Below are positions 11,677 through 31,833 of a stretch of DNA of 34,037 nucleotides, piece by piece. The stretch spans positions 2,924,852 through 2,958,888 of the forward strand of contig CP070751.1 of NCBI GenBank assembly GCA_020348445.1. The letters are read 5' to 3'. The position numbers and the translations under genes are program-made. This DNA is from Thermoplasmata archaeon (GTDB lineage Archaea > Thermoplasmatota > Thermoplasmata > GCA-020350865). Numbering within the stretch: the stretch's first letter is position 1; each line of letters starts with the position of its first letter. The notes beneath the pieces were generated by a model that was not told where the DNA came from, made no database searches, and was given only the letters and a program-made list of their open reading frames with translations.

Positions 11677-11964
11677 CTACCAAGAATGAGTAATTGCATC
11701 CATTTCACAGGCTTTAATACAGGGAGGAATGATCTTCTTACTAGTTGGTTTACAAGGTGCACATGTGTATTTAATCTTTTTTCTTTCCGCCTCTGCAACA
11801 AAGGCAACTTCTTGATCAGACAGAGGATCGTTGACATCTTCACCAACAGCCATCACACCATAGGGACAAGCATCAACACATTTGCCACAGCCATTACATT
11901 TATCTGTATCAATTGTTATAAAATATTCACCAGAGCCATCCTTATAACCATAATTTGCTATCAT
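11677..11964 (-). CDS. bzdM: Benzoyl-CoA reductase-associated ferredoxin
   Basis: N-terminus MIANYGYKDGSGEYFITIDTDKC recognised as BzdM-type. It carries CNGCGKCVDACP and a second spaced Cys set, and follows bzdQ. Confidence 0.85.
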   Translation of the reverse strand: MIANYGYKDGSGEYFITIDTDKCNGCGKCVDACPYGVMAVGEDVNDPLSDQEVAFVAEAERKKIKYTCAPCKPTSKKIIPPCIKACEMDAITHSW

Positions 11965-11976
11965 GAATCATCACAT

Positions 11977-12852
11977 CTATTTCTTTTTACCTTTTTCATG
12001 TAATGCCTTTGCAAACAAAGCTGCGCCTAGAGCACCAGCTATCTGCGGATCATAATTCGATGTATCCAAAATCTTGATACCAACTTCTTTCTCTAATCTT
12101 GTGACAACACCTTTATTCTTAGCTATACCGCCTGTAATAGCAAAATCCTCCTCGACGCCTATTCGCTCAAGAAGAGTCATAATCCTATGGGCCATTGCAG
12201 AACAATATGCAGCAAGCACCTTGTTCTTAGGCCAACCCTCCCTGAGTAAACCAGTAGCCTCAGTTTTAGCATAGACCACACAGGTACTGCTCACTGGTGT
12301 AGGTTCCTTATCTATATCCAAAGAAAGATTCCCTACGTCATTGATTGACACGCCAAGGAGATCAGCAAATACCTCCATTCCACGGCCTGTGCCAGCTGCA
12401 CATTTATCATTCATAAGGAAATTCGTAACCTTTCCTCGTTCATCACAATGTATTGCCTTGCAATCCTGGCCACCCATATCTAAAATGGTCCGTACCGAAG
12501 ACCCATACATGAAGTTGCCACCACGAGCATGACATGCAATCTCCGTGATAGCACGTTGACTAAACGGAACATTGACTCGTCCATAACCTGTACCAACAGT
12601 GTAAATAATATCGTCTAGCTTAAGACCTGTATCCTCCATAGCCCAGTTTATAGCTTTCATAGCAGAATCAGGGCTATCTGAACCAGTTCTCATATTAGAA
12701 TAAGCAAATAGCTCGCCATCCGCAAGAATAACAGCCTGAGAACTCACTGAACCAACATCCACACCAGAAGTAATTAACTTACCTTTCCAATCTATATCTG
12801 GGCTAGTCCACTGGGATTCTGTCCATCTCCAAAACTCTGTTTTTTCTACCAT
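11977..12852 (-). CDS. bzdQ: Benzoyl-CoA reductase (bzd type) ATPase subunit Q
   Basis: ASKHA motifs GVDVGSVSS, TGYGR, DMGGQDCK, MNDKCAAGTG and TGGIAKN, with the BzdQ-type N-terminus EFWRW.ES.W. Confidence 0.92.
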   Translation of the reverse strand: MVEKTEFWRWTESQWTSPDIDWKGKLITSGVDVGSVSSQAVILADGELFAYSNMRTGSDSPDSAMKAINWAMEDTGLKLDDIIYTVGTGYGRVNVPFSQRAITEIACHARGGNFMYGSSVRTILDMGGQDCKAIHCDERGKVTNFLMNDKCAAGTGRGMEVFADLLGVSINDVGNLSLDIDKEPTPVSSTCVVYAKTEATGLLREGWPKNKVLAAYCSAMAHRIMTLLERIGVEEDFAITGGIAKNKGVVTRLEKEVGIKILDTSNYDPQIAGALGAALFAKALHEKGKKK

Positions 12853-12855
12853 TTC

Positions 12856-13641
12856 TCATGCACCTCTCTTCCAACCAGCGGCTGCTAATGCTGCACCTAA
12901 AGCCCCCACATACTCCGGGTCCTTAGGCACTACTACCTCTAATCCAAGATCTTTATTAAGAGATTCGACAAAACCAATGTTCTTTGCAACTCCACCTACA
13001 AGTACTACATCTTTATTAAAACCAATTTTTCTAATCATAGATGTTATCCTACTTGCCATCGCATCATGAACTGCCTTAGCCATATTTGCCTTTGAAACTT
13101 TATTATGTACCATGGTCACAACCTCCGACTCCGCAAATACCGTGCACTGTGCATTCATTGGGATATCCTCAGTTGCCTTCAATGAAAGAGTGCCCAACTC
13201 TTTAAGAGGTACTTCAAGAGCACGAGACATAGCTTCAGTAAATGCACCTGCACCAGCAGCACATTTTTCATTAACCTCGAAATCTAATATCTTCCCGGTT
13301 TCATCGCATCTCATCCCCCTGCCTTCTTCAGCACCGACATCAATAACACTTCTAGCAGCAGGATGAAGATAAACTGCCCCTAGTGAATCACAGCCTACTA
13401 CAGATTTAGTTTCATCATAGAATGGAGCAAGCTTCTCACCAGTACCTGTAGAGACAACCTTGTCGAGGTCATCCTTGTTAAGACCAGCCTCTTTAAGGGC
13501 CATATCTATTGCTTTCTGAGCACTTTTTGTCACTTCAAACCCTGCTAGCTCATTAGATTTTGCAACAATCTTGTTATCCTTCAAAATCACGACTTTGATA
13601 TTCTTTGCACCTAGGTCAATTCCCATAGTGATCATAATCAT
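12856..13641 (-). CDS. bzdP: Benzoyl-CoA reductase (bzd type) ATPase subunit P
   Basis: GIDLGAKN, DVGAEEGR, NEKCAAGAG, CTVFAESEV and VGGVAKN. It lies between bzdO and bzdQ. The true start may be ATG 13635. Confidence 0.88.
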   Translation of the reverse strand: MIMITMGIDLGAKNIKVVILKDNKIVAKSNELAGFEVTKSAQKAIDMALKEAGLNKDDLDKVVSTGTGEKLAPFYDETKSVVGCDSLGAVYLHPAARSVIDVGAEEGRGMRCDETGKILDFEVNEKCAAGAGAFTEAMSRALEVPLKELGTLSLKATEDIPMNAQCTVFAESEVVTMVHNKVSKANMAKAVHDAMASRITSMIRKIGFNKDVVLVGGVAKNIGFVESLNKDLGLEVVVPKDPEYVGALGAALAAAGWKRGA

Positions 13642-13655
13642 ATCCTCCTATATTT

Positions 13656-14999
13656 TTATTTGACACCCAATGTCTCCATAAATGCATTGATTTTAGCCTT
13701 TGTTCTTGCCTCATCAAACTCTCTTTCATCAGCGTTGTTTCCCTCGAATGCCATAACTGGAAAACCGGCGTCAAGAAGAGCCAACCTATTTTCAGCAATA
13801 CCTACAGTAAGCCCTTCGCAGCCCCTGTTGTAATGAAGCATAACACCATCGAGTTTCCACTCACGGGCAATTCGTATCATCATATCACTCTTGAGATGAC
13901 ATGAGTAGAAATGTTGCCATTCGGGTTTATGCAATTCATATTTTACATATTCATAAAGTGCTTGATCTCTACTTGAGAAATCCGTATCAGGTATGGTTTT
14001 TGGACCCCAAGTACCATCCTTTTTTACCTCCCATTGACCAATAAGACCAAAAGTGTAGAGCGAACCTATACTGATACATCCAAACTTCTCAAGATACCTA
14101 AAAATACTTAAAAAACTCCACGGTGGTTGCGTGTCTGACATCACTCTGACACGTTCATTGGGTACAGCAGCGATACCTCTCTTTACCCTGTCCTTTACCT
14201 CGGGGAGAAGATCTTTTTCATAAAAATCTGCGACCTGTCTACCTGCTTTTTGTAGAGTACCAAGGACATACAATGAATAAATGGATTTTTCATCCAATGG
14301 GGCCGGTATAGCCTTATTCAGTTCACAAATCTCTGCCCATTTTGATGTTGACACAAAATGATTCCGAATAGCCTTAAACAACAGTTCATCATCATAATCC
14401 CTACCAGTAATCTTCTCCAAAAATTTGATACCATCCTTTAGTTGTTCCACAACATACTTGATCTTGCTATCGGTGAGTTCATTGGCGGGGCCTACAGCAT
14501 TATCCACCGTAAACATGGGAATGCCGCCTTCAAGGTCTGATACCACCTGATACCACTTGGCATGAGAGCAGCAGATATGATCCTGCCAGATAAAATCAGG
14601 TTTCGGGAAGCCTAGCGGCTTTGCCCCTTGAAACCTTGGGACAAACTCTCCTGCGTCGTTATATCCAAAAGCATATTTATCAATAATAACAGAACCCCAA
14701 TAGTTCCGCATATAAGCACAGAGATCTCGAGGATAACCTTTTACCTCAGTAGCCTCCATGCATTCTAACGAAAGCTCTTTGTCAAACGCAATAGTGGCAG
14801 AATAGGGTTCACTAGTAATTGGGTAAACATCATTGCCCAAGCCTGCAGGAATGGCATCAAACGTCCATGCACCACCAGCCCATCGTATTCCACCTTTGTC
14901 ATGCGCCTTAGCATAATCCTGATAATACTTTGTCCGGATATTTTTCGCCTTGTTCCAACATTTCAATTTCTCAGTTGGATATTTAGCCTCAAGTTCCAT
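13656..14999 (-). CDS. bzdO: Benzoyl-CoA reductase (bzd type) subunit O
   Basis: [45 protein letters not shown] and [17 protein letters not shown] lies upstream. Confidence 0.92.
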
Positions 15000-15012
15000 A
15001 TTTCATTACCTC

Positions 15013-16143
15013 CTAGAACAAATCCTCCTCACCTATCATTTCAAGAAACGCTTCTACTCGAATCTTAAACTGACCCACAGGCACTGTCACATCAAACTCC
15101 AGGAATAAAGTTGGTATCCCAGCATCCCCAAGTGCTTTTTTTATGGCCACGAAATCCAGCTCATGCGGGTCACAGAACTTCTGTTGCATAATGATAACGC
15201 CATCAACATTCCATTCCTTACATAAATTCAAAATGTGAGGGATTCTTTTACGCTCCTCCCAGTCCTTTGACGGACAAGGGACTCGATCTATATACCGTGC
15301 TGCTATTGACGCTAACCGATCCTCTCCAGGCATCACCTCATTCCAAAAATATCTCGAACCTGTACAATGATCGTCCGTCACAAACGTGGCGCCAAGGTTC
15401 TCCACCATGTTCATAAAGACGGTATCATCATCCTCTGATCCAAGGATCATCAATCTACTACCAGCTTCTCTATCAGGTGTATAGTTATCTAGTTTCTTTA
15501 GAAGATCTTTTAACATCTTGTTATGTTCAGCTTTATCAGTCATTTGCATAGCCATGACAATTTCCATGACCTCCTCACCAGTAATAGGCGGGTTGTCACG
15601 TTTCCTCAGATCATAAAGCTTCCTCATCAGACGTCTGTTCTCGTTGTAAACCTTTATAGCATTGTCCAAATCCTTATCAGTGATCTTTTTACCAGTCCAG
15701 TCTTCCACTTCTTTCTTAAAAATACGGTATTCCTCGGTTAGAAACTCATGTGCATGCGGACTCTGAACCTTATTAGGCATGCATAGGAATTTCTCAAAAT
15801 CTACAGGTCTATGCTTAATCCAACTAGTATACGCCTGCCGAATATGAAGACACGACTGAGCGATCATAAGACCGTCAAGGTATTTATATCTGTTCTTGAG
15901 TCCTTGAGCAAGACAATCCCGACAGAAAGGACAAAACATGGCAAAGATATGCGGCTCTGTGACATCCTGCGGTTCGTGACTACCAAGAATACGCACAGGC
16001 AATATCCCTGCAGCATACAATATCTCTTCGGGTACATAGGTACAAAAATACCCCATCACCTTTCCATTAGTCTTCTTCTTCCACTGTTTAGCATAATCAT
16101 GCCGGTTTTTTTCCAATTGCCTGAATTGTTCAATCGTTTCTAT
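15013..16143 (-). CDS. bzdN: Benzoyl-CoA reductase (bzd type) subunit N; probable ATA start
   Basis: GYFCTYVPEE, MFCPFCRDCLAQGL, SCLH, DDHCTGSRY, CPSKD and QKFCDPH. The track start is TTG 16116. The frame extends to ATA 16143, which lies 5 nt after RBS GGGGGTG. Confidence 0.9.
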   Translation of the reverse strand: METIEQFRQLEKNRHDYAKQWKKKTNGKVMGYFCTYVPEEILYAAGILPVRILGSHEPQDVTEPHIFAMFCPFCRDCLAQGLKNRYKYLDGLMIAQSCLHIRQAYTSWIKHRPVDFEKFLCMPNKVQSPHAHEFLTEEYRIFKKEVEDWTGKKITDKDLDNAIKVYNENRRLMRKLYDLRKRDNPPITGEEVMEIVMAMQMTDKAEHNKMLKDLLKKLDNYTPDREAGSRLMILGSEDDDTVFMNMVENLGATFVTDDHCTGSRYFWNEVMPGEDRLASIAARYIDRVPCPSKDWEERKRIPHILNLCKEWNVDGVIIMQQKFCDPHELDFVAIKKALGDAGIPTLFLEFDVTVPVGQFKIRVEAFLEMIGEEDLF

Positions 16144-16176
16144 TTTAACACCCCCTTTTTTACATTGTCTTTTAGA

Positions 16177-16626
16177 TCAATCTGATTTATATGCCAGATT
16201 TATGAAACCGCTTTTGTCAAACCCTATTGATTTGAAAAATGATATTAAATCTCCGCTATCCCATTTAACAGTTGTATATACCTCTTTTATACCATTGTCT
16301 CCGAAATAACGAATCAAAGCTTCTCCCAGTGTCCTCCCTATGCCTTTTCCCATGAGTTTAGGATCAACCTCTATCATCTCAATCCATCCCGACCGCTCTA
16401 CACCGAATCCCCATTCCTTGATACAACCGACTATAAAACCTACGACTCTGTTTTCATTTTCTGCAATGATACATGTTTGAGGGCTCTTTTGGATGAAGGA
16501 CACAAATAGGTCTTCGATTGCATAATTCATACTTTGGCCTAGGCCATGTCTAATAATCTTTCGATGTATTTCAACAGCCTGGTCGATATCTTTTTCCTTC
16601 ATGGGTCTTATAGTGATATCTTTCAT
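16177..16626 (-). CDS. GNAT-family acyltransferase-fold protein
   Basis: VVGFIVG, and motif A EVDP...GKGIGRTL. The motif B-like region reads DLISFFKSIGF. Confidence 0.85.
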   Translation of the reverse strand: MKDITIRPMKEKDIDQAVEIHRKIIRHGLGQSMNYAIEDLFVSFIQKSPQTCIIAENENRVVGFIVGCIKEWGFGVERSGWIEMIEVDPKLMGKGIGRTLGEALIRYFGDNGIKEVYTTVKWDSGDLISFFKSIGFDKSGFINLAYKSD

Positions 16627-16641
16627 ATTACTATCCCTATC

Positions 16642-16779
16642 TCAATCTACCCTGATAATTTTGACTTTTTTTTCAATCCAATCTGGGGGAAGATAAATGC
16701 GGCCGCTATTGCCACACTTCTTTACAATCTTCTCGAGCATCTCTTGACCATAAACCTCAAATTTTGTTGGATTGTCCAT
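16642..16779 (-). CDS. Small DUF2080-like (AbrB/SpoVT-type swapped-hairpin) protein, 45 aa; absent from the ORF track
   Basis: Hand translation gives MDNPTKFEVYGQEMLEKIVKKCGNSGRIYLPPDWIEKKVKIIRVD*. An AGGGA RBS precedes the ATG and the stop is 15 nt before the GNAT start. The FEVYG.EM.EK.VK..GNSGR.YLP..W..K.VKIIR pattern matches my recollection of DUF2080. Confidence 0.8.
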   Translation of the reverse strand: MDNPTKFEVYGQEMLEKIVKKCGNSGRIYLPPDWIEKKVKIIRVD

Positions 16780-16788
16780 AATAATCCC

Positions 16789-16805
16789 TAGCTACATTGT
16801 AGCTA
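16789..16805. promoter_or_regulatory. 17-bp palindrome, candidate operator of the benzoyl-CoA reductase operon
   Basis: TAGCTACA-T-TGTAGCTA has perfect 8-bp arms and sits between the TATA box and the RBS of the first gene. Confidence 0.55.
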
Positions 16806-16823
16806 TATTAAAGTTATAATGTA

Positions 16824-16842
16824 ATTATTTATATAGTTTTTG
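16824..16842 (-). promoter_or_regulatory. Archaeal-type BRE/TATA promoter for the DUF2080-GNAT-bzd operon
   Basis: Minus strand reads CAAAAAC-TATATAAATAAT, about 45-55 nt upstream of ATG 16779. Confidence 0.55.
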
Positions 16843-16868
16843 TTTGTATCGGCCATAACCGGAAATAG

Positions 16869-16894
16869 AAAATAAGGTGATGAAGCCTTATTTT
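16869..16894. repeat. Inverted repeat in the divergent intergenic region
   Basis: AAAATAAGG-tgatgaag-CCTTATTTT, with 9-bp arms and an 8-nt spacer. Confidence 0.5.
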
Positions 16895-16995
16895 AGGTAA
16901 AATTTTTATACCACATTTATAATATAATATTTTCATCGACTAACATCACATACTTGTTATGTTTACTATTTAAATAAAATATATGGAGGAAAAAA

Positions 16996-19845: not shown

Positions 19846-20125
19846 AGTTTAAGTGATAATAACATAATTTGGAGGATTCATAGCTGATATAGATAAGTTC
19901 CAATTCCAGCGTTTTTATCATTATAAGATAAAAATCAATCTAATCAATTCGGCGGCTTCATATTATTACATTTATGTTGACTAATTAAATCATGAAAAAC
20001 TGTAAATTATTAGAAGATAGAAAATCAGTGTATTCTGAATTTATTTATTGTTCTTAGAAAAACATTTATCTCACCTATTTATAACCTCCCTTGAACCTGT
20101 TACATATAAAGGGAGACATAGAAAC

Positions 20126-21929: not shown

Positions 21930-22349
21930 TTATTTGATTTTTTCAAGTGAATAATAGAGCTTTATATCAGGTATCTCCTCGAATATCTTAGGTACTGCTT
22001 TTAACCGCATTTCTATCTCAATTTGTTCCTCCGGGACATCCACCCAGCCTAGGAGTCGTCCACCATCATCTAGATCCAAAACGCCAATTATGTATGGCGC
22101 GATATCGTCAAAACCTGTAGGTGCTGCATAGATGATAGTATATGTGTGTAATCTCCCTTTACCAGTTGTTTCAACCCATTCAAACTCATCTGAAAAGCAT
22201 TTAATGCAGTCGGCTCGTGGTGGAAAGTAAAACTCGCCGCATTTCTTGCATCTTGTACCCATCAGCTTCCCATCTTTTAAGTAATCAGCGAACTTAGTGA
22301 CCTTTGTGTATGGTACAAAGTTTATCTTTCCAAAGTAGTGGAATGGCAT
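21930..22349 (-). CDS. DUF35 Zn-ribbon/OB-fold thiolase partner
   Basis: RCKKCG...PPRADC..C Zn ribbon followed by an OB-fold. It is coupled to the thiolase, and the start is reassigned to ATG 22349 after GGAGGTGA. Confidence 0.88.
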   Translation of the reverse strand: MPFHYFGKINFVPYTKVTKFADYLKDGKLMGTRCKKCGEFYFPPRADCIKCFSDEFEWVETTGKGRLHTYTIIYAAPTGFDDIAPYIIGVLDLDDGGRLLGWVDVPEEQIEIEMRLKAVPKIFEEIPDIKLYYSLEKIK

Positions 22350-22353
22350 TTTC

Positions 22354-23502
22354 TCACCTCCCATGTATATGGACAAAGCAGTACTGACCTATGCCACCAA
22401 CGTTGTGTGTCAATCCTATTTCTGCATCTACTTGTCTTTTCCCTGCTTCTCCCCTAAGTTGTTTTACAATCTCTGTTGTCATTGATACTCCTGTAGCTCC
22501 TACGGGGTGACCTTTAGCCTTAAGGCCACCATCAATGTTCACAGGAGTTTTACCACCGATATAACTCTGTTTCTCTTCTATAAATTTTCCTCCCTTGCCT
22601 TTCTCACAGAAACCTAGGTCTTCATAAGCCATGATTTCTGCTATGGTGAAGCAGTCGTGTACATCTGCCACATCGACATCTTTGGGTTTAATGCCTGCTT
22701 GTTTATATGCTTGTTTCGATGCCTCCACTGTACTTGGTATTCCTACAAGGTGTGGTCGACGTAGTACTGACATTTCAGCTGATGCACATCCTAAACCCTC
22801 AAGCCATATAGGGGTATCATTTAGTTTCTTTGCATTCTTTTCATTTGTCATGATTATGCAGGCGGCTCCATCAGCATTTGCGCAGCAGTCAAAGACGTTA
22901 AGAGGATAGGCTACTTTATCTGAGGCGAGGCATTTCTCAATGGTGACTTCTTTTTGAAACATCGCCTTTGGATTCATGGTGCCATAGTGATGGTTTTTAA
23001 CAGCCACCATCGCCATCTGCTCCTTTGTAGTCCTAAATTCATACATATGCCGTGTGGCATACAATGCATAGTATCCTGGAAATGTAGTACCAAAAATGGA
23101 CTCCCATTGTACATCTCCTACTCTACCCATAAGAGCTAGTATCTCGGGCGTTGTAAGCTCTGTCATCTTCTGTAGGCCTATCACAGCTACGACCTCTTGC
23201 ATTCCAGATTTTATAGCCACATATGCCGTGCGTATAGCCGCGCTACCAGAGGCACAGGCAGCTTCGGTAAGCCAAGTAGGCTGTGGATTCACCCCTAGAT
23301 ACTCTGCTACAACTCCTGGCAAAGAACGCTGTTTATGATATTCTGGAGACGAGCCTATTATCGTGGCATCGATATCATGCTGGGTTATGTCACCAGCATC
23401 TATCAATGCTTCCCTAAAGGGCTCAAATGCAAGCTCCTGAACTGTCGCATCACTCCTTCGCCCAAACTTGCCGTGACCTATGCCAACGATTCCCACCTTC
23501 AT
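22354..23502 (-). CDS. Thiolase, archaeal/SCP2-like type (DUF35-associated)
   Basis: Catalytic EAACASG, HDCF, and GGLKAKGHPVGATG motifs. Confidence 0.9.
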   Translation of the reverse strand: MKVGIVGIGHGKFGRRSDATVQELAFEPFREALIDAGDITQHDIDATIIGSSPEYHKQRSLPGVVAEYLGVNPQPTWLTEAACASGSAAIRTAYVAIKSGMQEVVAVIGLQKMTELTTPEILALMGRVGDVQWESIFGTTFPGYYALYATRHMYEFRTTKEQMAMVAVKNHHYGTMNPKAMFQKEVTIEKCLASDKVAYPLNVFDCCANADGAACIIMTNEKNAKKLNDTPIWLEGLGCASAEMSVLRRPHLVGIPSTVEASKQAYKQAGIKPKDVDVADVHDCFTIAEIMAYEDLGFCEKGKGGKFIEEKQSYIGGKTPVNIDGGLKAKGHPVGATGVSMTTEIVKQLRGEAGKRQVDAEIGLTHNVGGIGQYCFVHIHGR

Positions 23503-23514: not shown

Positions 23515-24258
23515 TTAAATGTATTGACCACCATCCACCTTGATAACTTCTCCAGTGATATGCCTGGCTCTCTCGCTGCAGAGGAAGGATACAACATTTG
23601 CTATATCCTCAGGAGTAGCGAGCCTGCCTAAAACAGTCTCATCAACGGCTGTTTTTATGAATTCTGGCGGTATAGATTTTGCCATCTCTGTCATAACCAT
23701 ACCTGGTGCAACAGCATTAACGTTTACATTGAACTTTCCTAGCTCCTTTGCTAAGGCTTTAGTAAGCGCGATCTCGCCACCCTTAGAAGCAGAGTAATTT
23801 GTTTGACCAAATTTGCCACGCAACCCGTTTATGGACGTAATATTCACGATTTTACCATACCTCTGATCCTTGAAAAAACCAGCCGCTAGCTTGTTGTATA
23901 TGAAGTATCCTTTCAAATTTACCGCGATAACTTGGTCCCATTCGTCTTCACTCATCTTCCAAATTACTCTATCACGAGTGATACCGGCATTGCATACAAG
24001 AATGTCTAATCGACCAAGATTATCAATAACCTTAGAGAACATTTTCTGTGCATCCAAATGGTTAGTTACATCTGCCTTAATTGCCAAGGCTTTCCTACCC
24101 AGCTTTTCGATTTGTTTAACTATCTCCTTAGCCTCTTTGTCATGCCTACGATAGTTAATAGCTACATTTGCACCATCCTCAGCTAGTTTTACTGCGATAA
24201 CTGCGCCTATGCCTAAGCTGCCGCCCGTCACAATGGCATTCTTACCATCTAGTTCCAA
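23515..24258 (-). CDS. Short-chain dehydrogenase/reductase (FabG/PhaB-like 3-oxoacyl-CoA reductase)
   Basis: TGGSLGIG, NAG, catalytic YSASK, and NAVAPG. Start reassigned to TTG 24258 after GGAGAATGA. Confidence 0.88.
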   Translation of the reverse strand: MELDGKNAIVTGGSLGIGAVIAVKLAEDGANVAINYRRHDKEAKEIVKQIEKLGRKALAIKADVTNHLDAQKMFSKVIDNLGRLDILVCNAGITRDRVIWKMSEDEWDQVIAVNLKGYFIYNKLAAGFFKDQRYGKIVNITSINGLRGKFGQTNYSASKGGEIALTKALAKELGKFNVNVNAVAPGMVMTEMAKSIPPEFIKTAVDETVLGRLATPEDIANVVSFLCSERARHITGEVIKVDGGQYI

Positions 24259-24400
24259 AATATCATTCTCCAGCAAATTTAAAACCAGATAAACATGAAG
24301 TAATATTTTAAAATTGGGTTCCTCAATCATTTTTTACAATGATTACATGCAGAAATTCAGCAAAAATGGGGAGTTTTCCACTTAAATAATCCCTTATCTT

Positions 24401-25234
24401 TTAGGTCTTTAATCCTAGCAATTTCTCAGCATTTCTATATAGTATCTTCTCAATGGTTGTTTCTTTAAGACTTAGAGCACATACTGCATCGACATTTTCC
24501 TTAATACTCCCTACCCCTGGCCAATCTGATCCAAATATAACTTTATCAGCATTTTTCTCCAGCTCTGGAAAATATTGCAACAGTTTTTGAGGAGGCAAAC
24601 CACTGATCTCCATATACACATTTTTATGAACTCTTGAAAGAAAAAAAGCTCTATCATACCAGAAGCCACGTCCACTATGAGCCATAATAATCCTCAGGTC
24701 AGGGAAATCCGCTGCTACTTCATCAAGATGTAATGGATCTCCATATTTTAACTTAGAATTCTTGTATATTGATGAACCTGTATGGAACATAACCTGTATG
24801 CCAAGCTCAACAGCCTTCGAATAAAGTGAGTAGATCTTCCTCTGATTCGGGAAGAAATGTTGATAGGATGGATACAGCTTCAAGCCCTTAAATCCCATCC
24901 CCTCAACACAATTTTCCAATACCTTTTCAGGGTTAGAAGTTGTATTTGGATTTATAGAGGCAAAGGGTATGAACCTTTTCCGTCCTTTACAAAAATTTTG
25001 GACGTAGCAGTTTGGTACTACACCTGTTGTTAGAGGAGAGTCTTCTGCTAGGACAACAGCATATGCTACACCCTCTTTTACTAGATATTTTTCCAATCCA
25101 TCAGGATTCATGACATCTTCGAAATTCTCAAAAAGGTAGGGGTTCCTCTCTTTAAGATATTCTATTATCCATGGATGCCAATCCTTTTTTCTGCCAATGT
25201 GAAGATGAAAATCGATGACATTGCCTGTATACAC
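24401..25234 (-). CDS. Amidohydrolase-2 family metal-dependent hydrolase
   Basis: IDFHLH, GLKLYP, MFHTG, AHSG and FGSDWP metal-ligand motifs. Confidence 0.88.
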   Translation of the reverse strand: MYTGNVIDFHLHIGRKKDWHPWIIEYLKERNPYLFENFEDVMNPDGLEKYLVKEGVAYAVVLAEDSPLTTGVVPNCYVQNFCKGRKRFIPFASINPNTTSNPEKVLENCVEGMGFKGLKLYPSYQHFFPNQRKIYSLYSKAVELGIQVMFHTGSSIYKNSKLKYGDPLHLDEVAADFPDLRIIMAHSGRGFWYDRAFFLSRVHKNVYMEISGLPPQKLLQYFPELEKNADKVIFGSDWPGVGSIKENVDAVCALSLKETTIEKILYRNAEKLLGLKT

Positions 25235-25247: not shown

Positions 25248-26384
25248 TTACTTAGTCTTTTTTGGCCTTGGTAGAACTGCCTCGATTAGCTCATCATCGA
25301 ATGGATGTCCCTCTGCTAGCAATCTTCGATATTTCACAAAATCTATGACATCCTTGCCAGTTAGCTTTCTATTGTTAAAGGCATGAAAACCAAGGAATGC
25401 CTCAGTTGCCATGTTGGCTGCGAGCCAATGTCGATTTGCGAGCTTTGTTTGGTCCCAAAAGAACTTCTTTTTCATTCTTATGCCATCAATGGATTTTATT
25501 AGGCAGCCAGGCATGAGATTGGTATAAGTCCAAACCATATCGTTCACTGCTTTATCTAAGAGTTCAAAATCTGTTGGAGTAGATTTCATAAACTCCTTCG
25601 CTTTGTTCAATTCCTCTCCTTTGAGAAATTCACCGTAAACAATCTCACCATCCTCTACATATCTATCAGTTACAACCATTGGATTTCTCACGAATTTCTT
25701 ACCCTGCTTCAAAACAGGTTCTACCCTGCTAATGAGACCAACTCGCTTCATCTTGTATGCAGACCATAACTCACAAGAGATGCAGTTCCACATTGCATCC
25801 TCTATTCCTAAATACCATGGGAGAAAATCTGTTGAACCACCATCAGGTGCAGAGCCATGTCGAGGCCCAGCTTGACCAAATAATGCTAGATCTGATGAAA
25901 CGGCGAGATCACAGGCCATACCAATTTCCTGTCCACCAGCGACGCGCATTCCATTCACACGGCAGATGGTTGGTTTTTTACAGCCAAGGATTGCATCTAC
26001 CATAGCATTGAACAGATCCATGTAGTTACCATATTCGTTTGGTTTACCACTGTAATATTCTGCATATTCTTTTGTGTTTCCTCCAGTGCAAAATGCTTTG
26101 TCTCCCACGGCTGTAAATATAGCTGCCACCACGCTACGATCCATCGATGCTCTGTGAAAACCTGCAATTACGCCTTTTACCATTTCTGTAGTATATGAAT
26201 TGTATTGACTTGGATTGTTTAATATAATCCATGCGGAGTTCAAACCATCAACAGTGTTTCCTTCAGGATCAATAACTGGTTTCAATTCATAGATTATGCT
26301 AGGGGGTTCACGACTGAAATATTGGTCGCCCCATAAATCATGATTCTTCAATTCACTATCTCTAGGTAACCATTCTAAGGTCAT
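25248..26384 (-). CDS. oah: 6-oxocyclohex-1-ene-1-carbonyl-CoA hydrolase (ring-opening; Oah/BamA/BzdY)
   Basis: Crotonase fold with NNP.QYNSYTT.MVK, FCTGGNTKEYAEYY, RVNGMRVAGGQEIGMACD, GSAPDGGSTDFLP and NRHWLA.NM, all typical of BamA/Oah. Confidence 0.93.
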   Translation of the reverse strand: MTLEWLPRDSELKNHDLWGDQYFSREPPSIIYELKPVIDPEGNTVDGLNSAWIILNNPSQYNSYTTEMVKGVIAGFHRASMDRSVVAAIFTAVGDKAFCTGGNTKEYAEYYSGKPNEYGNYMDLFNAMVDAILGCKKPTICRVNGMRVAGGQEIGMACDLAVSSDLALFGQAGPRHGSAPDGGSTDFLPWYLGIEDAMWNCISCELWSAYKMKRVGLISRVEPVLKQGKKFVRNPMVVTDRYVEDGEIVYGEFLKGEELNKAKEFMKSTPTDFELLDKAVNDMVWTYTNLMPGCLIKSIDGIRMKKKFFWDQTKLANRHWLAANMATEAFLGFHAFNNRKLTGKDVIDFVKYRRLLAEGHPFDDELIEAVLPRPKKTK

Positions 26385-26435
26385 TTTAGTCCTCCCTTTA
26401 TATTAAAGGTTTATCTTAGGGCAGAATGATATAAC

Positions 26436-26453: not shown

Positions 26454-26544
26454 AAAAAACAACCATTTACATAAGGGATACAATACATTAAACAAATAAA
26501 ATTAAATACCACTCTTACCATATCGCTGAGCCAAAGGGAGAGGC

Positions 26545-27717
26545 ATGAAAGCCGCAGTTTTATATGGGAAAGAAGAGCTGAATATAGTCTCAGATTTTGA
26601 AGATCCTGTCATGAAAAAAACCGATGTTCTTATCCAGTCAAAATTCGGAGGTTTGTGTAGCACTGATCGTAGTCTTTACCGTGGTTTTGTTCCGTTCAAA
26701 CCACCGTTGATCATTGGACATGAAATCGCTGGTGTAGTTAAAGATGTTGGATCTTCAGTTTCTGGTGTTGATATCGGTGACCATGTAATTATTCCACCTG
26801 TTTATCCCGGATGTGAGGATGAAACCTGCAACTCTTGTAGAGAGGGGCTAACAAATAGATGTAAAAAATCAGTGTTCATAGGACATGGTGTACATGGTGG
26901 CGATGCAGAGTTTATTGCTGTACCATCCAGGTATACATTTAAAATCAACGAAGATGTACCATTAGATGAGGCATGCATTATTCCAGATGCCGTCTCGACA
27001 CCATTTCATGCATTGAAGAGCAGGTCTGTCCCTGCACACATATTCCAGCACAGCTCAGATACTCATAAGTTGTTTGAGCATGACAGCCATTGGCTCCGAG
27101 GTAAAAATGTTGTAGTCTTTGGTGTCGGCGGTGTCGGAGGGCCTGCTGTAAATTTAGCTGCTCGTTATTTCCAGGCAAAAAATGTAGTTGCGGTAGATGT
27201 TTTTGACAAAAAACTTGAGCTTGCTAAAAAACTTGGCGCTACACACACTGTAAACTCTAAAGCATTTTTTGAGGAAAAAGGCATTACAACAAGAGAGTTA
27301 ACTGGTAGGGAGAAAGCTGAGGCGATCTCTGATTTATCTAAACATATCACGTCTCACCTATCAGAAGACAAATATCAGGTTGATGTTGTTGTTGACTGCT
27401 CCGGTGTCTCTGATACCTTTCCTGTTGCAGTTGAGGCAGCGAGCAAAAACCGAACCATTATACAAGTTGGATGGCCTCCAAAGCCTGTTAGTCAGTTCTT
27501 AAATCGAAAAATCATGGATAAATATCTTACAATTACTGGAACATGGGCATGCCCTATGAATGAGATGAAAGAAATTGTGATCGCTGTAGAAAACAAAGAA
27601 GTTGATTTGAACCTACTTGTAACGAACAAGGACTATACACTAGATAAGTTAGAAAACGCGATACATGACCTTGAAGCTGGTAAAATCCTTGGCAGGGCGA
27701 CTATTGCCATTGTTTGA
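26545..27717 (+). CDS. Zn-dependent MDR dehydrogenase, candidate 6-hydroxycyclohex-1-ene-1-carbonyl-CoA dehydrogenase (Had/BzdX role)
   Basis: GLCSTD, GHE, four structural-Zn Cys, PDAVSTPF (Had-like ADAVTTPY) and GVGGVG. It is coupled to dch and divergent from oah. Confidence 0.7.
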   Translation: MKAAVLYGKEELNIVSDFEDPVMKKTDVLIQSKFGGLCSTDRSLYRGFVPFKPPLIIGHEIAGVVKDVGSSVSGVDIGDHVIIPPVYPGCEDETCNSCREGLTNRCKKSVFIGHGVHGGDAEFIAVPSRYTFKINEDVPLDEACIIPDAVSTPFHALKSRSVPAHIFQHSSDTHKLFEHDSHWLRGKNVVVFGVGGVGGPAVNLAARYFQAKNVVAVDVFDKKLELAKKLGATHTVNSKAFFEEKGITTRELTGREKAEAISDLSKHITSHLSEDKYQVDVVVDCSGVSDTFPVAVEAASKNRTIIQVGWPPKPVSQFLNRKIMDKYLTITGTWACPMNEMKEIVIAVENKEVDLNLLVTNKDYTLDKLENAIHDLEAGKILGRATIAIV

Positions 27718-27734
27718 TAACTGGGGGTGAAATT

Positions 27735-28502
27735 TTGGAATATAAGACCATAGTTGTAGAAGAAAAGGATTTGATTGGTAGAATTACGTTTAATAGACAA
27801 CCCTTAAACATACTTAACATTGAGATGATGAAGGAAATAAATAAAGCATTAAAGGATTTTCAAAAGCAAAAGTTGAAGGTTCTTGTAATCAATGCAAATG
27901 GTAAGGCATTCTCAGCAGGTGTAGATGTATCAGATCATACAAAAGAAAAAGTAAAAGAGATGATACATGTTTTTCACGAGATTTTTACCAACCTCAGCAA
28001 GATTAAAGCTCCAACAATTGCTTTGGTCAATGGAGCAGCTTTGGGAGGAGGATGTGAAGTTGCCATTTTCTGCGATATGGTTATTGCTTCTGAAAAATCT
28101 AAATTTGGACAACCAGAGATCAAAGTAGGTGTATTTCCTCCAGTTGCAGCTGCCCTTTTTCCAAAACTTATGTGGTGTAAAAAGGCTTTAGAACTTATTA
28201 TGACTGGTGAAACTATACGTGCAAATGAGGCAAAGGAACTCGGGCTCGTAAATCATATCTTCCCTGTAGAGAATTTTGAGGAAGAAGCAGAAAAATTCAT
28301 AGCTGAGAAACTAGCAAGCAACAGCGTAGTTATTTTACAGCTGACGAAGCGGGCTTTCCTAGAAGGCGCTACGCAAAACTATACAGAGTCAATAAAAAAG
28401 ATTGAAGACATCTATCTAAATGAGCTTATGAAAACAAGTGATGCAAGTGAGGGGCTATCTGCGTTTTTAGAAAGGCGGCAGCCGATTTGGAAGAATAAAT
28501 AA
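27735..28502 (+). CDS. dch: Cyclohexa-1,5-diene-1-carbonyl-CoA hydratase (Dch/BzdW/BamR-like)
   Basis: Crotonase fold with PLNILNI, FSAGVDV.DH, ALGGGCE and GQPEIKVGVFPPVAA. Start reassigned to TTG 27735 after GGGGGTGA. The genomic context supports the call. Confidence 0.8.
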   Translation: MEYKTIVVEEKDLIGRITFNRQPLNILNIEMMKEINKALKDFQKQKLKVLVINANGKAFSAGVDVSDHTKEKVKEMIHVFHEIFTNLSKIKAPTIALVNGAALGGGCEVAIFCDMVIASEKSKFGQPEIKVGVFPPVAAALFPKLMWCKKALELIMTGETIRANEAKELGLVNHIFPVENFEEEAEKFIAEKLASNSVVILQLTKRAFLEGATQNYTESIKKIEDIYLNELMKTSDASEGLSAFLERRQPIWKNK

Positions 28503-28509
28503 AAAATTT

Positions 28510-30549
28510 TTACTTACCTTTAAAGGTCGGTCTTCGTTTCATTACCACCGAATTCAACCCTTCTAAAGCATCTTCGGTTGAAAATATCTCGAGGAGATGA
28601 CTAAGCTCCAGTTCTAATCCCTCGTTTAAATTAAGATGACTACCTTCATCTATTATCTGGTTAGCGAGTTTTATTGCAATTGGAGCTTTGTAGGAGATAG
28701 TTTTTGAGATCTTTTTTCCAAGTTCGTTTAGTTCTCCCTCACCAGATAACATCCATTGAATGTTTGCATCAGAAAAATAGTTCTTGATTTTCTCAAAATA
28801 ATCAGGTAGCTCTACTTTACGTTCCATTGATTTTCTTAGCGTTTTTCCACTGCGTATAAGCTCCGATATTTTACTGTCTATCTCATCACTCGGCACAACA
28901 TATTCAACTAACCCTATTGATGCAGCTTTTTTTGCGTCAAGTATCTTGCCTGTGAATATCATATATTTTGCTAGTTCTTTTCCTATATATTGTGTGGTTC
29001 TCTGAGTGCCACCTAATCCTGGATAAATGCCTATACCTGTTTCAGGGAAGCCTATGCTACCTTTTTCAGATGCAATTATAGTATCTGCGGTGAGTGCTAT
29101 TTCAGCGCCACCCCCCAACGCTAGCCCGTCAATTTTTGCTATAACTAGTTTATCGGCCGTATCTATCTTGTTTAGAACTGTATGGCCATATCCCGTGAAT
29201 TTGCATATATCTTCAATCTTGTCTTCTTCTATCTTTTTGATGAAGTATTGTACATCTGCACCTGCTATAAATGATCTCCCAGCACCTTCTAGAACAATTG
29301 CTTTGACATCTGGGTTGTTATTTGCAATTGTGAACTGTTTATCTAGTTGCTGGATGACTTCCTCGTTTATTGCATTCATAGCCTCCGGTCTGTTAATAAG
29401 AATTCTTGCGATATTGTCTTTAATATCAAGATCAACATAGTTGAAGCTCCATTCTTCATTGTGCTTGTACTTTTGTTTTAATATGTTAGGTATCTTCAAC
29501 ATGGGATATTTTTTCACAAACATTGTGACGATTTCATATGATTGCTCGATTCCATATTTATTCATCATTTCAAATGGGCCTAAACTCCATCTAAGACCTA
29601 CCTTTGCTCCCCTATTTGTATCCTCAATGCTTGCTACATCTTCTTCTATTAGCATGCATGCGACTGTGAAAATTGCACCAAGAAGACGTTCTTCTATAGT
29701 ATCGCGCTTTGAAGCATCGACCGCTCCGCTTAAATCCCAAGGTTCTTGCTTCTCAAACTGTTGCTTTAAACAATTGCTAGGCAGGTAGAAATCACCTAGT
29801 TTATCTGCTAATCCAATCGTGGAATGATAAGCTATTGGGATTCCTGTAACATTCATCAATTTAAACGGACCCATGCCTATGTTGAAAACCTTTTTTGCCA
29901 CATCATCTATAGTTGGAACGTTAGCAACTCCCTCCTCAAGAAGCCTCGTAGCCTCGTTCAACCATGGTACAAAAAACCGGTTAACTGCAAACCCTGGGGA
30001 ATCCTTGACATGTATAGATACCTTGCCAATTTTTTTAGAAAAAATATCGGCAAGGGAAACGGTTTTCTGATTAGTATTATTGCCAGGTATGATCTCCAAC
30101 AATCGATTCATTGCTGGATGATAAAAGAAATGGAGACCAAGGAATCTATCACTAGAGTCGATTGATAAAGCTAGTTCTGTTATAGAAAAAGAAGATGTAT
30201 TAGACGCGAAAACGGTTTTATCTTCACAAATTTTATTTAAACGCTTGAAAAGATCTTTTTTAATATCTATATCCTCGAAAACAGCCTCTACCACAAGATC
30301 AGCATTTCTTACCTCATTCAAATCAGTAGTTCCACTTATGCGACTTAATATCTCCTTAGTTTGTTCTTGATTAAATATTCCACGTTCAACTGCCTTGGCT
30401 AATGTCTGCGTGATATTTGCTATTCCCTTTTGAACAAACCTATCTTCAACGTCAATCAAAACAACATCTATTCCTTCCTGCGCCACCTTCTGGGCAATAC
30501 CGCTTCCCATATTACCAGCACCAATAACTCCAATTTTTTGAATCTTCAT
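28510..30549 (-). CDS. 3-hydroxyacyl-CoA dehydrogenase / enoyl-CoA hydratase fusion
   Basis: N-terminal GVIGAGNMG, EAVFE, SNTSS, HFFYP and PGF.VNR. C-terminal crotonase with FIAGAD, ALGGG.E and PETGIG.YPG.GGTQR. Confidence 0.9.
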   Translation of the reverse strand: MKIQKIGVIGAGNMGSGIAQKVAQEGIDVVLIDVEDRFVQKGIANITQTLAKAVERGIFNQEQTKEILSRISGTTDLNEVRNADLVVEAVFEDIDIKKDLFKRLNKICEDKTVFASNTSSFSITELALSIDSSDRFLGLHFFYHPAMNRLLEIIPGNNTNQKTVSLADIFSKKIGKVSIHVKDSPGFAVNRFFVPWLNEATRLLEEGVANVPTIDDVAKKVFNIGMGPFKLMNVTGIPIAYHSTIGLADKLGDFYLPSNCLKQQFEKQEPWDLSGAVDASKRDTIEERLLGAIFTVACMLIEEDVASIEDTNRGAKVGLRWSLGPFEMMNKYGIEQSYEIVTMFVKKYPMLKIPNILKQKYKHNEEWSFNYVDLDIKDNIARILINRPEAMNAINEEVIQQLDKQFTIANNNPDVKAIVLEGAGRSFIAGADVQYFIKKIEEDKIEDICKFTGYGHTVLNKIDTADKLVIAKIDGLALGGGAEIALTADTIIASEKGSIGFPETGIGIYPGLGGTQRTTQYIGKELAKYMIFTGKILDAKKAASIGLVEYVVPSDEIDSKISELIRSGKTLRKSMERKVELPDYFEKIKNYFSDANIQWMLSGEGELNELGKKISKTISYKAPIAIKLANQIIDEGSHLNLNEGLELELSHLLEIFSTEDALEGLNSVVMKRRPTFKGK

Positions 30550-30585
30550 GGCTTAACACCTTTCCTTAAAACATTATTATTACAT

Positions 30586-31833
30586 TTAGTTGACTCTAAC
30601 TTCTAAAACAATAGCTGCACCAGTATCACCAGCCGCACAGCCGTCAAATAATCCATAGCCTCCACCTTTTTCTACTAACTCCTCAATAAGCTCCATAATT
30701 AGTCTTGCTCCTGTAGGGGCTTGTGGATGACCGTATATTAGAGATGAACCATAGTTATTCATATCCTTCCATTCAATATCCATTTCTCTGCAGAAATAGA
30801 TATCGTTTACAGCAAAGGGATTATGTGTTTTAATCGCATTTATATCTTTAATAGATAAATCTGTATTCTCAAGGGCCATTTTTGCAGCTGGGATTATTGC
30901 CATTGCCATATAGCCCTTTTTAGCTCTACCTTCACCATAAGATAAAACTTGGATTTCAATGTTCTTATTTTTACTCAGTTGTTTTGCCTTCTGTTTTGTA
31001 GTTACAATGATCCCACAGTTACCATCTGCTGGGTGAGTTTGAGTTCCGAAAGTAACTGTACCATCAGGATATACTGGTTTGAGTTTTTGAAGTCCTTCTA
31101 AGGTAGTTGGGTATATACCCTCATCTCCATCAACAGTAGCTATAACTTTGCGACCTTTTCTATCTTTAACTTCGATAGGAGTAATCATATATTTTTTCTG
31201 AAAAGCTCTATTTTTTTTTGTTGAATCTTGATATTGTTGATATCTTAAAAGTGTAAGTTTATCTTGCTCATCTTTACTTACCCCTATTTCTTTAGCAACA
31301 TTCTCAGCGGTTTCTATCATGGCATTCTTAGCATATGGATCATTACCAAAGTTATCCCAAACCCAACTCTCTTTATCCTGGGTTGCACCAGGGTTTTGGG
31401 GGTTTGGATAAACCAGAAGTGGGCCATTAGAACATCGATCTGCATATACTACAAGTACATTTTTCCGTAATCCAAATTCAATGCCTAAAGCAGCCAATTC
31501 AACTCCTCTTGCACCAGTTGCACATGCTTGTCCAATCATTGGGCCTGTGATATGGTCAGCACCAATCATACCAGCTAACCATGGTGTACCATAAAATGCC
31601 GAAAGCTGTGGTATTGTTATTCCAAAAATTAACTCATCAAATTCTTTAGGATTGATTTTTTTATCATTAAGAAATCTCTGCCCAATTTCAGCAGCAAATT
31701 GAATCGCGTGAAGGTTTTGGAAACTACCTTGCCATGTGCAAAATGGTGTACTCCAATAACCTCCGTAAGGAATATACACATCTTTGAAAGCTTTTTCTAA
31801 TCCTTGCTGCTTCATAGACTTATAATAACTCAT
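30586..31833 (-). CDS. Thiolase, bacterial-type acetyl-CoA C-acyltransferase (BamN-like; candidate 3-oxopimeloyl-CoA thiolase)
   Basis: YIPYGGYWSTPF..WQGSF, catalytic QACATG, HNPF in place of NEAF, GHPQ.PTG, and GCAAGD. Confidence 0.85.
   Translation of the reverse strand: MSYYKSMKQQGLEKAFKDVYIPYGGYWSTPFCTWQGSFQNLHAIQFAAEIGQRFLNDKKINPKEFDELIFGITIPQLSAFYGTPWLAGMIGADHITGPMIGQACATGARGVELAALGIEFGLRKNVLVVYADRCSNGPLLVYPNPQNPGATQDKESWVWDNFGNDPYAKNAMIETAENVAKEIGVSKDEQDKLTLLRYQQYQDSTKKNRAFQKKYMITPIEVKDRKGRKVIATVDGDEGIYPTTLEGLQKLKPVYPDGTVTFGTQTHPADGNCGIIVTTKQKAKQLSKNKNIEIQVLSYGEGRAKKGYMAMAIIPAAKMALENTDLSIKDINAIKTHNPFAVNDIYFCREMDIEWKDMNNYGSSLIYGHPQAPTGARLIMELIEELVEKGGGYGLFDGCAAGDTGAAIVLEVRVN

Follow-up and report, generated by a model that had tools for sequence, protein, structure and literature searches.

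Does a sediment archaeon encode an ATP-dependent route for breaking down benzoyl-CoA, and to which archaeal lineage do the genes belong? These questions are raised by a stretch of 34,037 bases (CP070751.1, positions 2,924,852 to 2,958,888; hereafter the window, meaning the whole stretch analysed), which is one entire contig of a sediment metagenome-assembled genome (MAG) from the Thermoplasmata. An earlier note, made from the DNA letters alone, had read positions 11,677 to 31,833 as a complete class I, bzd-type pathway of benzoyl-CoA dearomatisation in a probable archaeon. We find that this Thermoplasmatota contig very likely carries an island for anaerobic ATP-dependent benzoyl-CoA degradation, a functional prediction made alongside direct observation of gene identities, residue conservation, synteny and an archaeal host.

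The core of the island is formed by the reductase subunits and a ferredoxin:

15013..16143, minus strand: BzdN, the [8Fe-9S] double-cubane subunit, starting at ATA 16143 or TTG 16116; TIGR03190, 471.6 bits (cut-off 453.8)
13656..14999, minus strand: BzdO, the substrate-binding subunit with the aqua-[4Fe-4S] cluster; TIGR03191, 624.2 bits (cut-off 448.6)
12856..13641, minus strand: BzdP, second ATPase subunit; Pfam BcrAD_BadFG, 174.5 bits; TIGR00241, 212 bits
11977..12852, minus strand: BzdQ, ATPase subunit; TIGR03192, 434.5 bits (cut-off 380.2)
11677..11964, minus strand: BzdM-type ferredoxin of 95 amino acids (aa), 2x[4Fe-4S], with the motifs CxxCxxCxxxCP and CxxCx10CxxxC; Pfam Fer4

The NCBIfam equivalog cut-offs served as the criterion for family membership, and bzdN (by a narrow margin), bzdO and bzdQ score above them, which bears out the earlier identification of bzdN-O-P-Q followed by a ferredoxin in conserved order; no bzdP-specific model was found among the NCBIfam matches of BzdP. 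In Pfam terms, two HGD-D and two BcrAD_BadFG subunits lie contiguously on the minus strand between 11977 and 16116. Loci of Thermoplasmata and Asgard archaea show the same arrangement, (GNAT)-N-O-P-Q-ferredoxin-BzdV, and an Acidobacteriota locus has N-O-P-Q-ferredoxin-BzdV. The best matches in the PDB are the Azoarcus proteins of entry 8s02 (BzdO, 8s02_A, 590 bits; BzdN, 8s02_B, 454.7 bits), with the 3-methylbenzoyl-CoA reductase proteins far lower (MbdO 50.7 bits, MbdN 141.9 bits). Models of the Thauera-type enzyme fall far below their cut-offs (BcrB 37, BcrC 156, BcrA 148, BcrD 160 bits), and a Thauera-type or MBR-type reductase was excluded on these low BcrABCD scores and the score of MbdO. 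Judged from these comparisons, bzdNOPQ is a bona fide BZD-type class I reductase, with benzoyl-CoA reduction as its predicted reaction.

The functional residues of BzdO have been defined from the solved BzdNO structure (PMC11971306). Neither the window protein nor any of 90 relatives differs from the Azoarcus protein at the cluster cysteines C95, C128 and C380, at the acid/base pair E65/H131, at W46, Y97, L302 and L383 of the ring pocket, or at Q274 and Y298, the ligands of the thioester, so that six of the seven pocket and thioester residues (S44, W46, Y97, L302, L383, Q274 and Y298) are kept. Compared with 8s02_B, BzdN retains all conserved cysteines, from which the six [8Fe-9S] ligands were picked by conservation, as well as R53, R267, R290, H330, S239 and Q324.

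Downstream metabolism of the dearomatised product is represented by the following genes:

25248..26384, minus strand: Oah (BamA, BzdY), the ring-opening hydrolase; TIGR03200, 574.9 bits (cut-off 464.45), over model positions 1-360
27714..28502, plus strand: crotonase, positional candidate for Dch; TIGR03189, 162.9 bits (cut-off 292.5)
26545..27717, plus strand: Zn-dependent MDR dehydrogenase, positional candidate for Had; TIGR03201, 120.5 bits (cut-off 338.65)
23515..24330, minus strand: FabG-like SDR 3-hydroxyacyl-CoA dehydrogenase, alternative Had candidate; Pfam adh_short
28510..30549, minus strand: fusion of 3-hydroxyacyl-CoA dehydrogenase (HADH) and enoyl-CoA hydratase (ECH); Pfam 3HCDH_N, ECH
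30586..31833, minus strand: thiolase; Pfam Thiolase_N/C
31852-33054, minus strand: EtfA with an N-terminal 2x[4Fe-4S] ferredoxin domain (Fer4); Pfam ETF, ETF_alpha
33051-33851, minus strand: EtfB; Pfam ETF; NCBIfam AcrA/AcrB-like matches of EtfA and EtfB lie below their cut-offs
21930..23502, minus strand: pair of a DUF35 protein (OB-fold/Zn-ribbon) and an SCP-x-type thiolase, BbsAB-like; NF004720, 499.6 bits (cut-off 420)
24401..25234, minus strand: Amidohydrolase_2 family protein; Pfam PF04909, 141.6 bits

The earlier call of oah is upheld at full length and well above the equivalog cut-off. For dch and a Had-like dehydrogenase, which had also been named, the genes are present and their position is conserved, but the equivalog cut-offs are missed. 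Four general enoyl-CoA hydratase models outscore TIGR03189 on the crotonase, homologues of which (45-56% identical) adjoin bzd in Asgard and bacterial loci. The MDR dehydrogenase, for which the PDB Had structure (7quy) is the 13th match at 81 bits, adjoins oah in the SM1-50-like loci described below, and homologues of the SDR (64-67% identical) are found beside bzd in Planctomycetota and Ignavibacteriaceae loci. A full beta-oxidation tail had been claimed; the HADH/ECH fusion, the second thiolase (69-73% identical homologues beside bzd in Asgard loci) and EtfAB belong to it, but no acyl-CoA dehydrogenase gene was found in the window, because the contig is cut after etfB, directly past which the collinear genome of Thermoplasmatales archaeon isolate bin45 (G063) has two. 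With Dch and Had present as positional candidates only and acyl-CoA dehydrogenase off the contig, describing the pathway as complete went too far. The thiolase/DUF35 pair is present as the earlier note had it, although both BbsB (211 bits) and BbsA (53.7 bits) score under their cut-offs. For the Amidohydrolase_2 protein there was no NCBIfam match, and its best PDB match is an uncharacterised protein.

Genes for acyl-CoA formation and for the supply of reduced ferredoxin occupy much of the remaining contig:

268..2361, plus strand: ADP-forming acyl-CoA synthetase (ACD), which would gain ATP from acyl-CoA; Pfam ATP-grasp_5, Succ_CoA_lig, CoA_binding
2373..3923, plus strand: AMP-forming acyl-CoA ligase 1, candidate aryl-acid (benzoate) CoA ligase; Pfam AMP-binding
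20048..21892, plus strand: AMP-forming acyl-CoA ligase 2; Pfam AMP-binding; 83% identical in the related loci L014 and L025
9214..11661, minus strand: BzdV-like Fe-S flavoprotein of 815 aa with 2Fe-2S, NuoG-type 4Fe-4S, 2x4Fe-4S and a GltD-like NAD(P)H/FAD module
7315..9144, minus strand: tungsten-type aldehyde:ferredoxin oxidoreductase (AOR); Pfam AFOR_N 250 bits, AFOR_C 341 bits
6860..7375, minus strand: polyferredoxin, partner of the AOR, which it also adjoins in relatives; Pfam Fer4 families
4871..6115, plus strand: PadH-like FAD/NAD(P)H oxidoreductase, possibly an AorC-type subunit; Pfam Pyr_redox_2; PadH model 294.6 bits (cut-off 475)

Homologues of ligase 1 (49-62% identical) occur beside bzd in Asgard and Acidobacteriota loci, and ligase 2 was found at the collinear site only in L014 and L025. 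The ACD scores under the cut-offs of its NCBIfam relatives, the acetate and 4-hydroxybutyrate-CoA ligases. For the AOR, identity ranges from 74 to 85% over the loci with a type 1 operon (see below) and from 82 to 85% in those SM1-50-like loci that are closest to the window. A role for the AOR as a class II reductase of the BamB type was considered: it sits with a polyferredoxin, the PadH-like flavoprotein gene lies nearby on the other strand, and only a general AOR model matched, below cut-off. The bzdV gene reported earlier does follow the ferredoxin and encodes a BzdV-like domain order, but it lies at 9214-11661, outside the claimed span, which began at 11677. Its product, presumed to be a ferredoxin reductase from its sequence, matches in architecture and position the proteins of 836-841 aa that follow the ferredoxin in SM1-50 and Hodarchaeota loci.

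As a separate observation, this protein reaches just 38-51% identity, in most cases about 42%, with its BzdV-type counterparts in all of the 80 related loci, even where the other genes of the locus are 62-93% identical, as though the usual BzdV had been replaced by a distant version of the same architecture.

In the pathway that we envisage, an aryl acid would be converted to its CoA ester by an AMP-forming ligase; BzdP and BzdQ would hydrolyse ATP to drive low-potential electrons from the BzdM ferredoxin into the [8Fe-9S] cluster of BzdN and on to the aqua-[4Fe-4S] cluster of BzdO, where benzoyl-CoA would be reduced to cyclohexa-1,5-diene-1-carbonyl-CoA; and Oah would eventually open the ring, yielding 3-hydroxypimelyl-CoA, all roles being taken from family membership. 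The two intervening steps, hydration of the diene by the neighbouring crotonase and oxidation of the hydrated product by the MDR or the SDR dehydrogenase, are proposed from gene position only. The HADH/ECH fusion and the thiolases might then shorten the chain, with EtfAB accepting electrons from acyl-CoA dehydrogenases encoded just beyond the contig end and the ADP-forming synthetase regaining ATP. Ferredoxin could be re-reduced by the BzdV-like NAD(P)H-linked flavoprotein, by the adjoining tungsten-type AOR, or by both; for the latter route, the AOR, its polyferredoxin and the nearby PadH-like flavoprotein on the opposite strand are the candidates. At the head of the operon stand a small AbrB-like gene and the GNAT gene, preceded by a palindrome and a TATA-like box, both conserved.

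Several observations weigh against reading the window as a working benzoyl-CoA degradation island of this host. The Dch and Had candidates score below their family cut-offs, and neither AMP-forming ligase attains the benzoate-CoA ligase equivalog, the best matches of both being general fatty-acid/acyl-CoA ligase models, themselves below cut-off. In BzdO, Ser44 of the Azoarcus protein, which hydrogen-bonds Glu65, is replaced by glycine (residue 43 of the window protein), as it is in all 90 environmental relatives, and an insert of 15-17 residues follows Gly113 (of the type YKDGEFxPRFxGAxPLG), a feature seen only in a 25-row Thermoplasmata clade. The bzdN gene is without ATG, GTG or TTG at its conserved N-terminus (16116-16160, minus strand): at the site where translation starts with ATG in L013 and with GTG in L015, the window reads AAA, and L017, L020, L025 and L030 read AAT or AAG. 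The next codon, ATA at 16143, lies 5-6 nt past a GGGGGT(G) ribosome-binding site and is probably the start codon; the TTG chosen by the ORF finder (16116) aligns with a conserved Trp codon in relatives. Finally, the place of the contig in this MAG is uncertain, an issue that calls for a closer look at the host.

The MAG consists of 354 contigs joined via 100-N linkers (5.16 Mb, 41.5% G+C, 81.7% complete, 3.8% contaminated). Its sole small-subunit (SSU) rRNA piece scores 103 bits with the archaeal model versus 84 bits with the bacterial one, and all close relatives of the window are archaeal MAGs; the earlier suspicion of an archaeal host is thereby confirmed, and a bacterial host is ruled out. 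The window holds neither tRNA genes nor matches to Rfam families. In a scan with one genome per species, which returned 390 relatives, the top 19 were Thermoplasmatota MAGs, including SM1-50, SG8-5 and several 'chromosome' records. Most of nine SM1-50-like loci align with the window over 10-17 kb (L016 and L018 over 4.5-4.9 kb), at a mean nucleotide identity of 74-79% and, BzdV apart, with 62-93% identity between proteins. Taken over the SM1-50-like MAGs, all window proteins except BzdV and the S8 protease are 66-94% identical, in collinear order. In G063, a 2.3-Mb 'chromosome' record, the same order extends from the HadB-like gene and the ACD to EtfA over about 39 kb. SM1-50 is counted among the Thermoprofundales (MBG-D) MAGs (PMC6461988), and the guess in the earlier note of an MBG-D/DHVEG-type member of the Thermoplasmatota fits, since the nearest relatives are SM1-50-like 'Thermoplasmatales' MAGs for every gene save those for BzdV and the S8 protease. 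The protease tail, which had been offered as the clue to the lineage, turned out to be uninformative, as no close homologue of this protease was found in 40 related genomes. The host is thus a Thermoplasmatota archaeon, whether the contig was transferred or mis-binned.

Of 401 genomes sampled from the MAG's class, 23, belonging to 7 families, have a BzdO above cut-off, as have 6 of the 51 genomes around G063; the bzd trait is patchy but recurrent. Homologues 72-91% identical to the window BzdO come from unlabelled or named Thermoplasmata, and those at about 68%, which carry the NCBI name 'benzoyl-CoA reductase, bzd-type, subunit O', from Asgard archaea and several bacterial phyla; a search of a plasmid collection with BzdO gave no match. 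In an unrooted tree of 90 BzdO rows, assembled without proteobacterial (Azoarcus, Aromatoleum) or Ferroglobus sequences, 33 of the 35 Thermoplasmata-type rows formed one group (SH-aLRT 86) containing the starred subclades type 1 (100) and type 2 (98). The Asgard rows formed one starred clade (100), and the bacterial rows fell between Asgard and Thermoplasmata. With Thermoplasmata and Asgard BzdO each grouping on their own, this tree does not show the bacterial derivation of the cluster that the earlier note had suggested.

The MAG harbours a second bzd operon, on a 10-kb contig (L012; G000:C1:1380919-1391050), comprising genes for a DUF2080 protein, GNAT, BzdN-O-P-Q and a ferredoxin. Identity to the window operon is 58-79%, and this second set scores higher with the bzd models (N, 537.2 versus 471.6 bits; O, 669.3 versus 624.2 bits). 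A second oah (G000:C1:665132-666214) lies on the 95-kb contig that bears the SSU fragment, and further copies of AOR, amidohydrolase, thiolases, SDR, ligase 1, HadB-like protein and Etf are dispersed over large contigs. The second operon and the second oah are of the genus-typical type: all four genus mates carry bzdO and oah, with BzdO of type 2 in G001, G003 and G004 and of type 1 in G002, and the second Oah is 90-93% identical to those of G001, G002 and G003 and 79% to that of G004. The window Oah is 71-73% identical to those of the four genus mates and 82-89% to those of the SM1-50-like group. The 50 relatives drawn for G063 and the 400 genomes sampled from the MAG's class do not overlap, which suggests that the SM1-50-like group forms another class-level lineage. 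Given that most window genes have a second, genus-typical version in the MAG, the window is either a mis-binned contig or an island that came by transfer from an SM1-50-like lineage.

Mis-binning, under which the function would be the same and the contig would belong to an SM1-50-like (MBG-D/Thermoprofundales-type) archaeon of the same sediment, is a serious contender that we rate at somewhat under an even chance. The high, collinear similarity to SM1-50-like MAGs speaks for it, most clearly in the ACD and EtfA, which are 87% and 86% identical to those of G063 and 41-52% to those of genus mates (41% for the ACD), as do the affinities of the two Oah proteins, the dispersed second copies, the lack of overlap between the G063 relatives and the MAG-class sample, and a MAG size of 5.16 Mb versus 2.3-3.7 Mb in genus mates. 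Set against these points are the CheckM-type contamination of 3.8%, the presence of a type 1 operon in the genus mate G002, a unimodal GC distribution of the MAG and a tetranucleotide distance of the window to the MAG mean (0.0156) that is typical for a contig of this size (median 0.0127, 90th percentile 0.0175), although composition, in both tetranucleotide distance and GC, fails to separate the MAG from SM1-50 and so does not decide the matter. In Logan data, the depth over part of the window, 19-25x in one sample (X1) and 5.4-5.7x in another (X2), follows the depth of a genus-typical contig of 46.8 kb that lies next to it (13-25x and 3.5-7.2x), and these matching depths in two samples mildly favour true membership in the MAG. 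No nucleotide repeat above 73% identity is shared by the window and the rest of the MAG. The window DNA is near-complete in one sediment metagenome run, and another run from that study contains 76% of the sampled words; no RNA run is among the runs listed as containing it. Whichever way the contig came to be here, the case is a caution for genome-resolved metabolism, because one bin can hold two full pathway copies whose nearest relatives sit in different class-level lineages.

The function of the island can also be read differently, and two further genes at the left end of the contig matter for this:

3..284, plus strand: HadB/BcrB-like HGD-D protein, truncated at the contig end so that only its last 93 aa are present; Pfam HGD-D, 66 bits
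3926..4870, plus strand: PanE/ApbA-family 2-oxoacid reductase; TIGR00745, 193.6 bits (cut-off 141)

Intact homologues of the HadB-like protein (398-439 aa), which scores under every family cut-off, are accompanied by a BcrAD-type activase; SM1-50-like genomes have them at the same site, and Asgard loci have them next to bzd. In all, the HadB-like protein and its own activase adjoin bzd in 11 Asgard loci and four SM1-50-like genomes (for example, L106:7902-10094, L107:2485-4701 and L061:17363-19422), often with a PanE-family reductase and an AMP-forming ligase; the PanE-family gene lies beside bzd in Thermoplasmata and in some Asgard loci. The PanE-like reductase, the HadB-like protein with its activase, and the SDR with the thiolase/DUF35 pair might make benzoyl-CoA from aryl 2-oxo acids, with ring reduction disposing of reducing equivalents, so that the island would be mainly a reductive branch serving as an electron sink, or part of aromatic amino-acid fermentation, instead of a route for benzoate oxidation. 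We consider this rather unlikely. The recurrent neighbourhood just described is in its favour, together with the resemblance of the thiolase/DUF35 pair and the SDR to BbsAB/CD, the ferredoxin domain of EtfA, and the gene content of the MAG, where, at 82% completeness, dsrA was not found and one [NiFe] hydrogenase was. Together with five acyl-CoA dehydrogenases also found in the MAG, this gene content agrees with, without proving, fermentative or acetogenic life, which is how Thermoplasmata MAGs have been read (PMC6472368). Yet a true, conserved Oah is present and would commit the ring to cleavage, the activase is accompanied by one HGD-D subunit where known dehydratases have two, and each step of the proposed route is drawn from gene neighbourhood; moreover, phenylacetate, not phenyllactate, is the entry route proposed for Thermoprofundales (Liu et al. 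2020, as cited in PMC10581246). A more ambitious version, which we think unlikely, is that an island of at least 34 kb moved as a self-contained module between class-level Thermoplasmatota lineages, leaving one archaeon with two complete parallel pathways, and that the PanE-like reductase, the single-subunit HadB-like protein with its activase and the BbsAB-like thiolase with the SDR constitute an undescribed route from aromatic 2-oxo acids (phenylalanine) to benzoyl-CoA. If this were true, ATP-driven ring reduction would belong to peptide fermentation, not to hydrocarbon degradation. It is, in turn, very unlikely that the window reductase acts on methyl-, hydroxy- or halobenzoyl-CoA or another CoA ester and that the other bzd set is the true benzoyl-CoA reductase. 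The divergence of the two sets, the lower scores of the window set on the bzd models, the glycine in place of Ser44 and the clade-specific BzdO insert could be taken that way, but the substitution and the insert are common to both sets, neither the two sets nor the 90 relatives differ at W46, Y97, L302, L383, Q274 or Y298, and it is the window set, not the other one, that adjoins oah and the Dch candidate. Degradation of benzoyl-CoA through ring reduction and Oah is the reading that we retain.

Upstream of bzdN, the operon begins with a conserved leader region:

16177..16626, minus strand: GNAT acetyltransferase, conserved just upstream of bzdN; Pfam Acetyltransf_1
16642..16779, minus strand: leader open reading frame (ORF) of 45 aa, candidate regulator; DUF2080, 19.4 bits (below cut-off), and MazE/AbrB, 16.3 bits
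16789..16835, minus strand: conserved promoter region with a 17-bp palindrome, TAGCTACAWTGTAGCTA (16789-16805), and a TATA-like box (about 16826-16835)

GNAT precedes bzdN in both bzd sets of the MAG, in Thermoplasmata and in some Asgard and bacterial loci. The leader ORF is kept in 12 MAGs, and a DUF2080 protein also heads the second bzd set. The palindrome, with a chance expectation of 0.16 in the window, is exact in L014 and L025 and has near-copies in 12 of 12 aligned MAGs. TATA/BRE-like promoters had been reported earlier; the box 5' of the operon leader stands, being conserved in 12 related Thermoplasmata MAGs, and ribosome-binding motifs, likewise reported, were found (GAGG, GGAGG or GGTG type, no more than 20 nt from 16 of 28 starts). 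From its sequence, the combination of box, palindrome and AbrB-like ORF looks like a self-regulated promoter.

How does the island compare with systems already described? The bzd cluster of Azoarcus/Aromatoleum sp. CIB comprises bzdNOPQ, bzdM, bzdV and bzdW/X/Y, and the structure of its BzdNO has been solved (PDB 8s02; PMC11971306). The window shares its four-subunit architecture, the order N-O-P-Q followed by ferredoxin, the BzdV-type protein, the cluster ligands and catalytic residues, and an Oah above cut-off. Unlike the Azoarcus system, the window has a BzdO that is about 60% identical (262 of 443 positions, by hand count) with the S44G change and the 15-17 aa insert, Dch and Had candidates that are not equivalogs, an archaeal host with a TATA-type promoter region, and extra conserved neighbours, namely, the AbrB-like leader, GNAT, the AOR with polyferredoxin, the PadH-like, PanE and HadB-like proteins, the activase and the ACD. 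The Azoarcus active site is conserved over 90 environmental BzdO sequences, with Ser44 to Gly as the exception in all of them. Thauera-type BcrCBAD and MBR-type enzymes belong to the same superfamily and share the ATP-coupled mechanism, but their models score far below cut-off on the window proteins. Among archaea, the class I reductase of Ferroglobus placidus (Ferp_1184-1187) is the only enzyme studied in culture (PMC6500515); it resembles the window enzyme, by description rather than by sequence, in being archaeal, ATP-dependent, class I and ferredoxin-using, and, unlike the window host, F. placidus is a hyperthermophilic Fe(III) respirer.

Class I reductases in Thermoplasmata and Thermoprofundales are already known, and the window is one more well-preserved case. 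Dong et al. (2019) described Thermoplasmata MAGs that carry class I bcr together with dch, had and oah, and discussed why an ATP-consuming enzyme in strict anaerobes is surprising (PMC6472368), Zheng et al. (2022) added Ca. Yaplasmales, with bcrABCD (PMC9239135), and PCL and BCR with transcript evidence in Thermoprofundales are attributed to Liu et al. (2020) in PMC10581246. Asgard clusters with BzdV, ferredoxin, Dch and Had have also been published (PMC8163825; bioRxiv 10.1101/763623), among them a Hermodarchaeota contig with BcrABCD, BzdV, ferredoxin, Dch and Had. The window has the pathway, phylum and habitat of the published Thermoplasmatota clusters in common, and its nearest relatives include SM1-50; it differs from the Thermoplasmatota and Asgard clusters in that its population, at species level, is not named there, in the second parallel set in the bin, and in a BzdV about 42% identical. 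The contig adds to the evidence that mesophilic sediment archaea, both Thermoplasmatota and Asgard, carry an ATP-consuming class I benzoyl-CoA reductase. The energetic puzzle noted earlier, a class I enzyme in a fermenter or acetogen, is a real point but not a new one, having been discussed for Thermoplasmata MAGs; how energy-poor strict anaerobes afford the enzyme was asked in PMC6472368, and the contig gives no answer. Sensible targets for biochemistry are the conserved neighbours, that is, the AbrB-like leader with its palindrome, GNAT, the AOR set, and the HadB-like protein with its activase.

Two genes of the contig remain to be described, the second of which is not part of the pathway:

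6172..6801, minus strand: LysE-type exporter; Pfam LysE, 113 bits
16996..19845, plus strand: S8 subtilase with a NosD/beta-helix tail; Pfam Peptidase_S8, NosD

Located between GNAT and the thiolase/DUF35 pair, the subtilase is an insertion that no collinear relative has. Beyond the window, on a neighbouring 4.2-kb contig (L108:7400-7450, corresponding to G000:C1 at about 2959400), many Logan contigs from four runs end or diverge, with a summed depth of up to about 200, in what looks like a repeat or mobile-element boundary.

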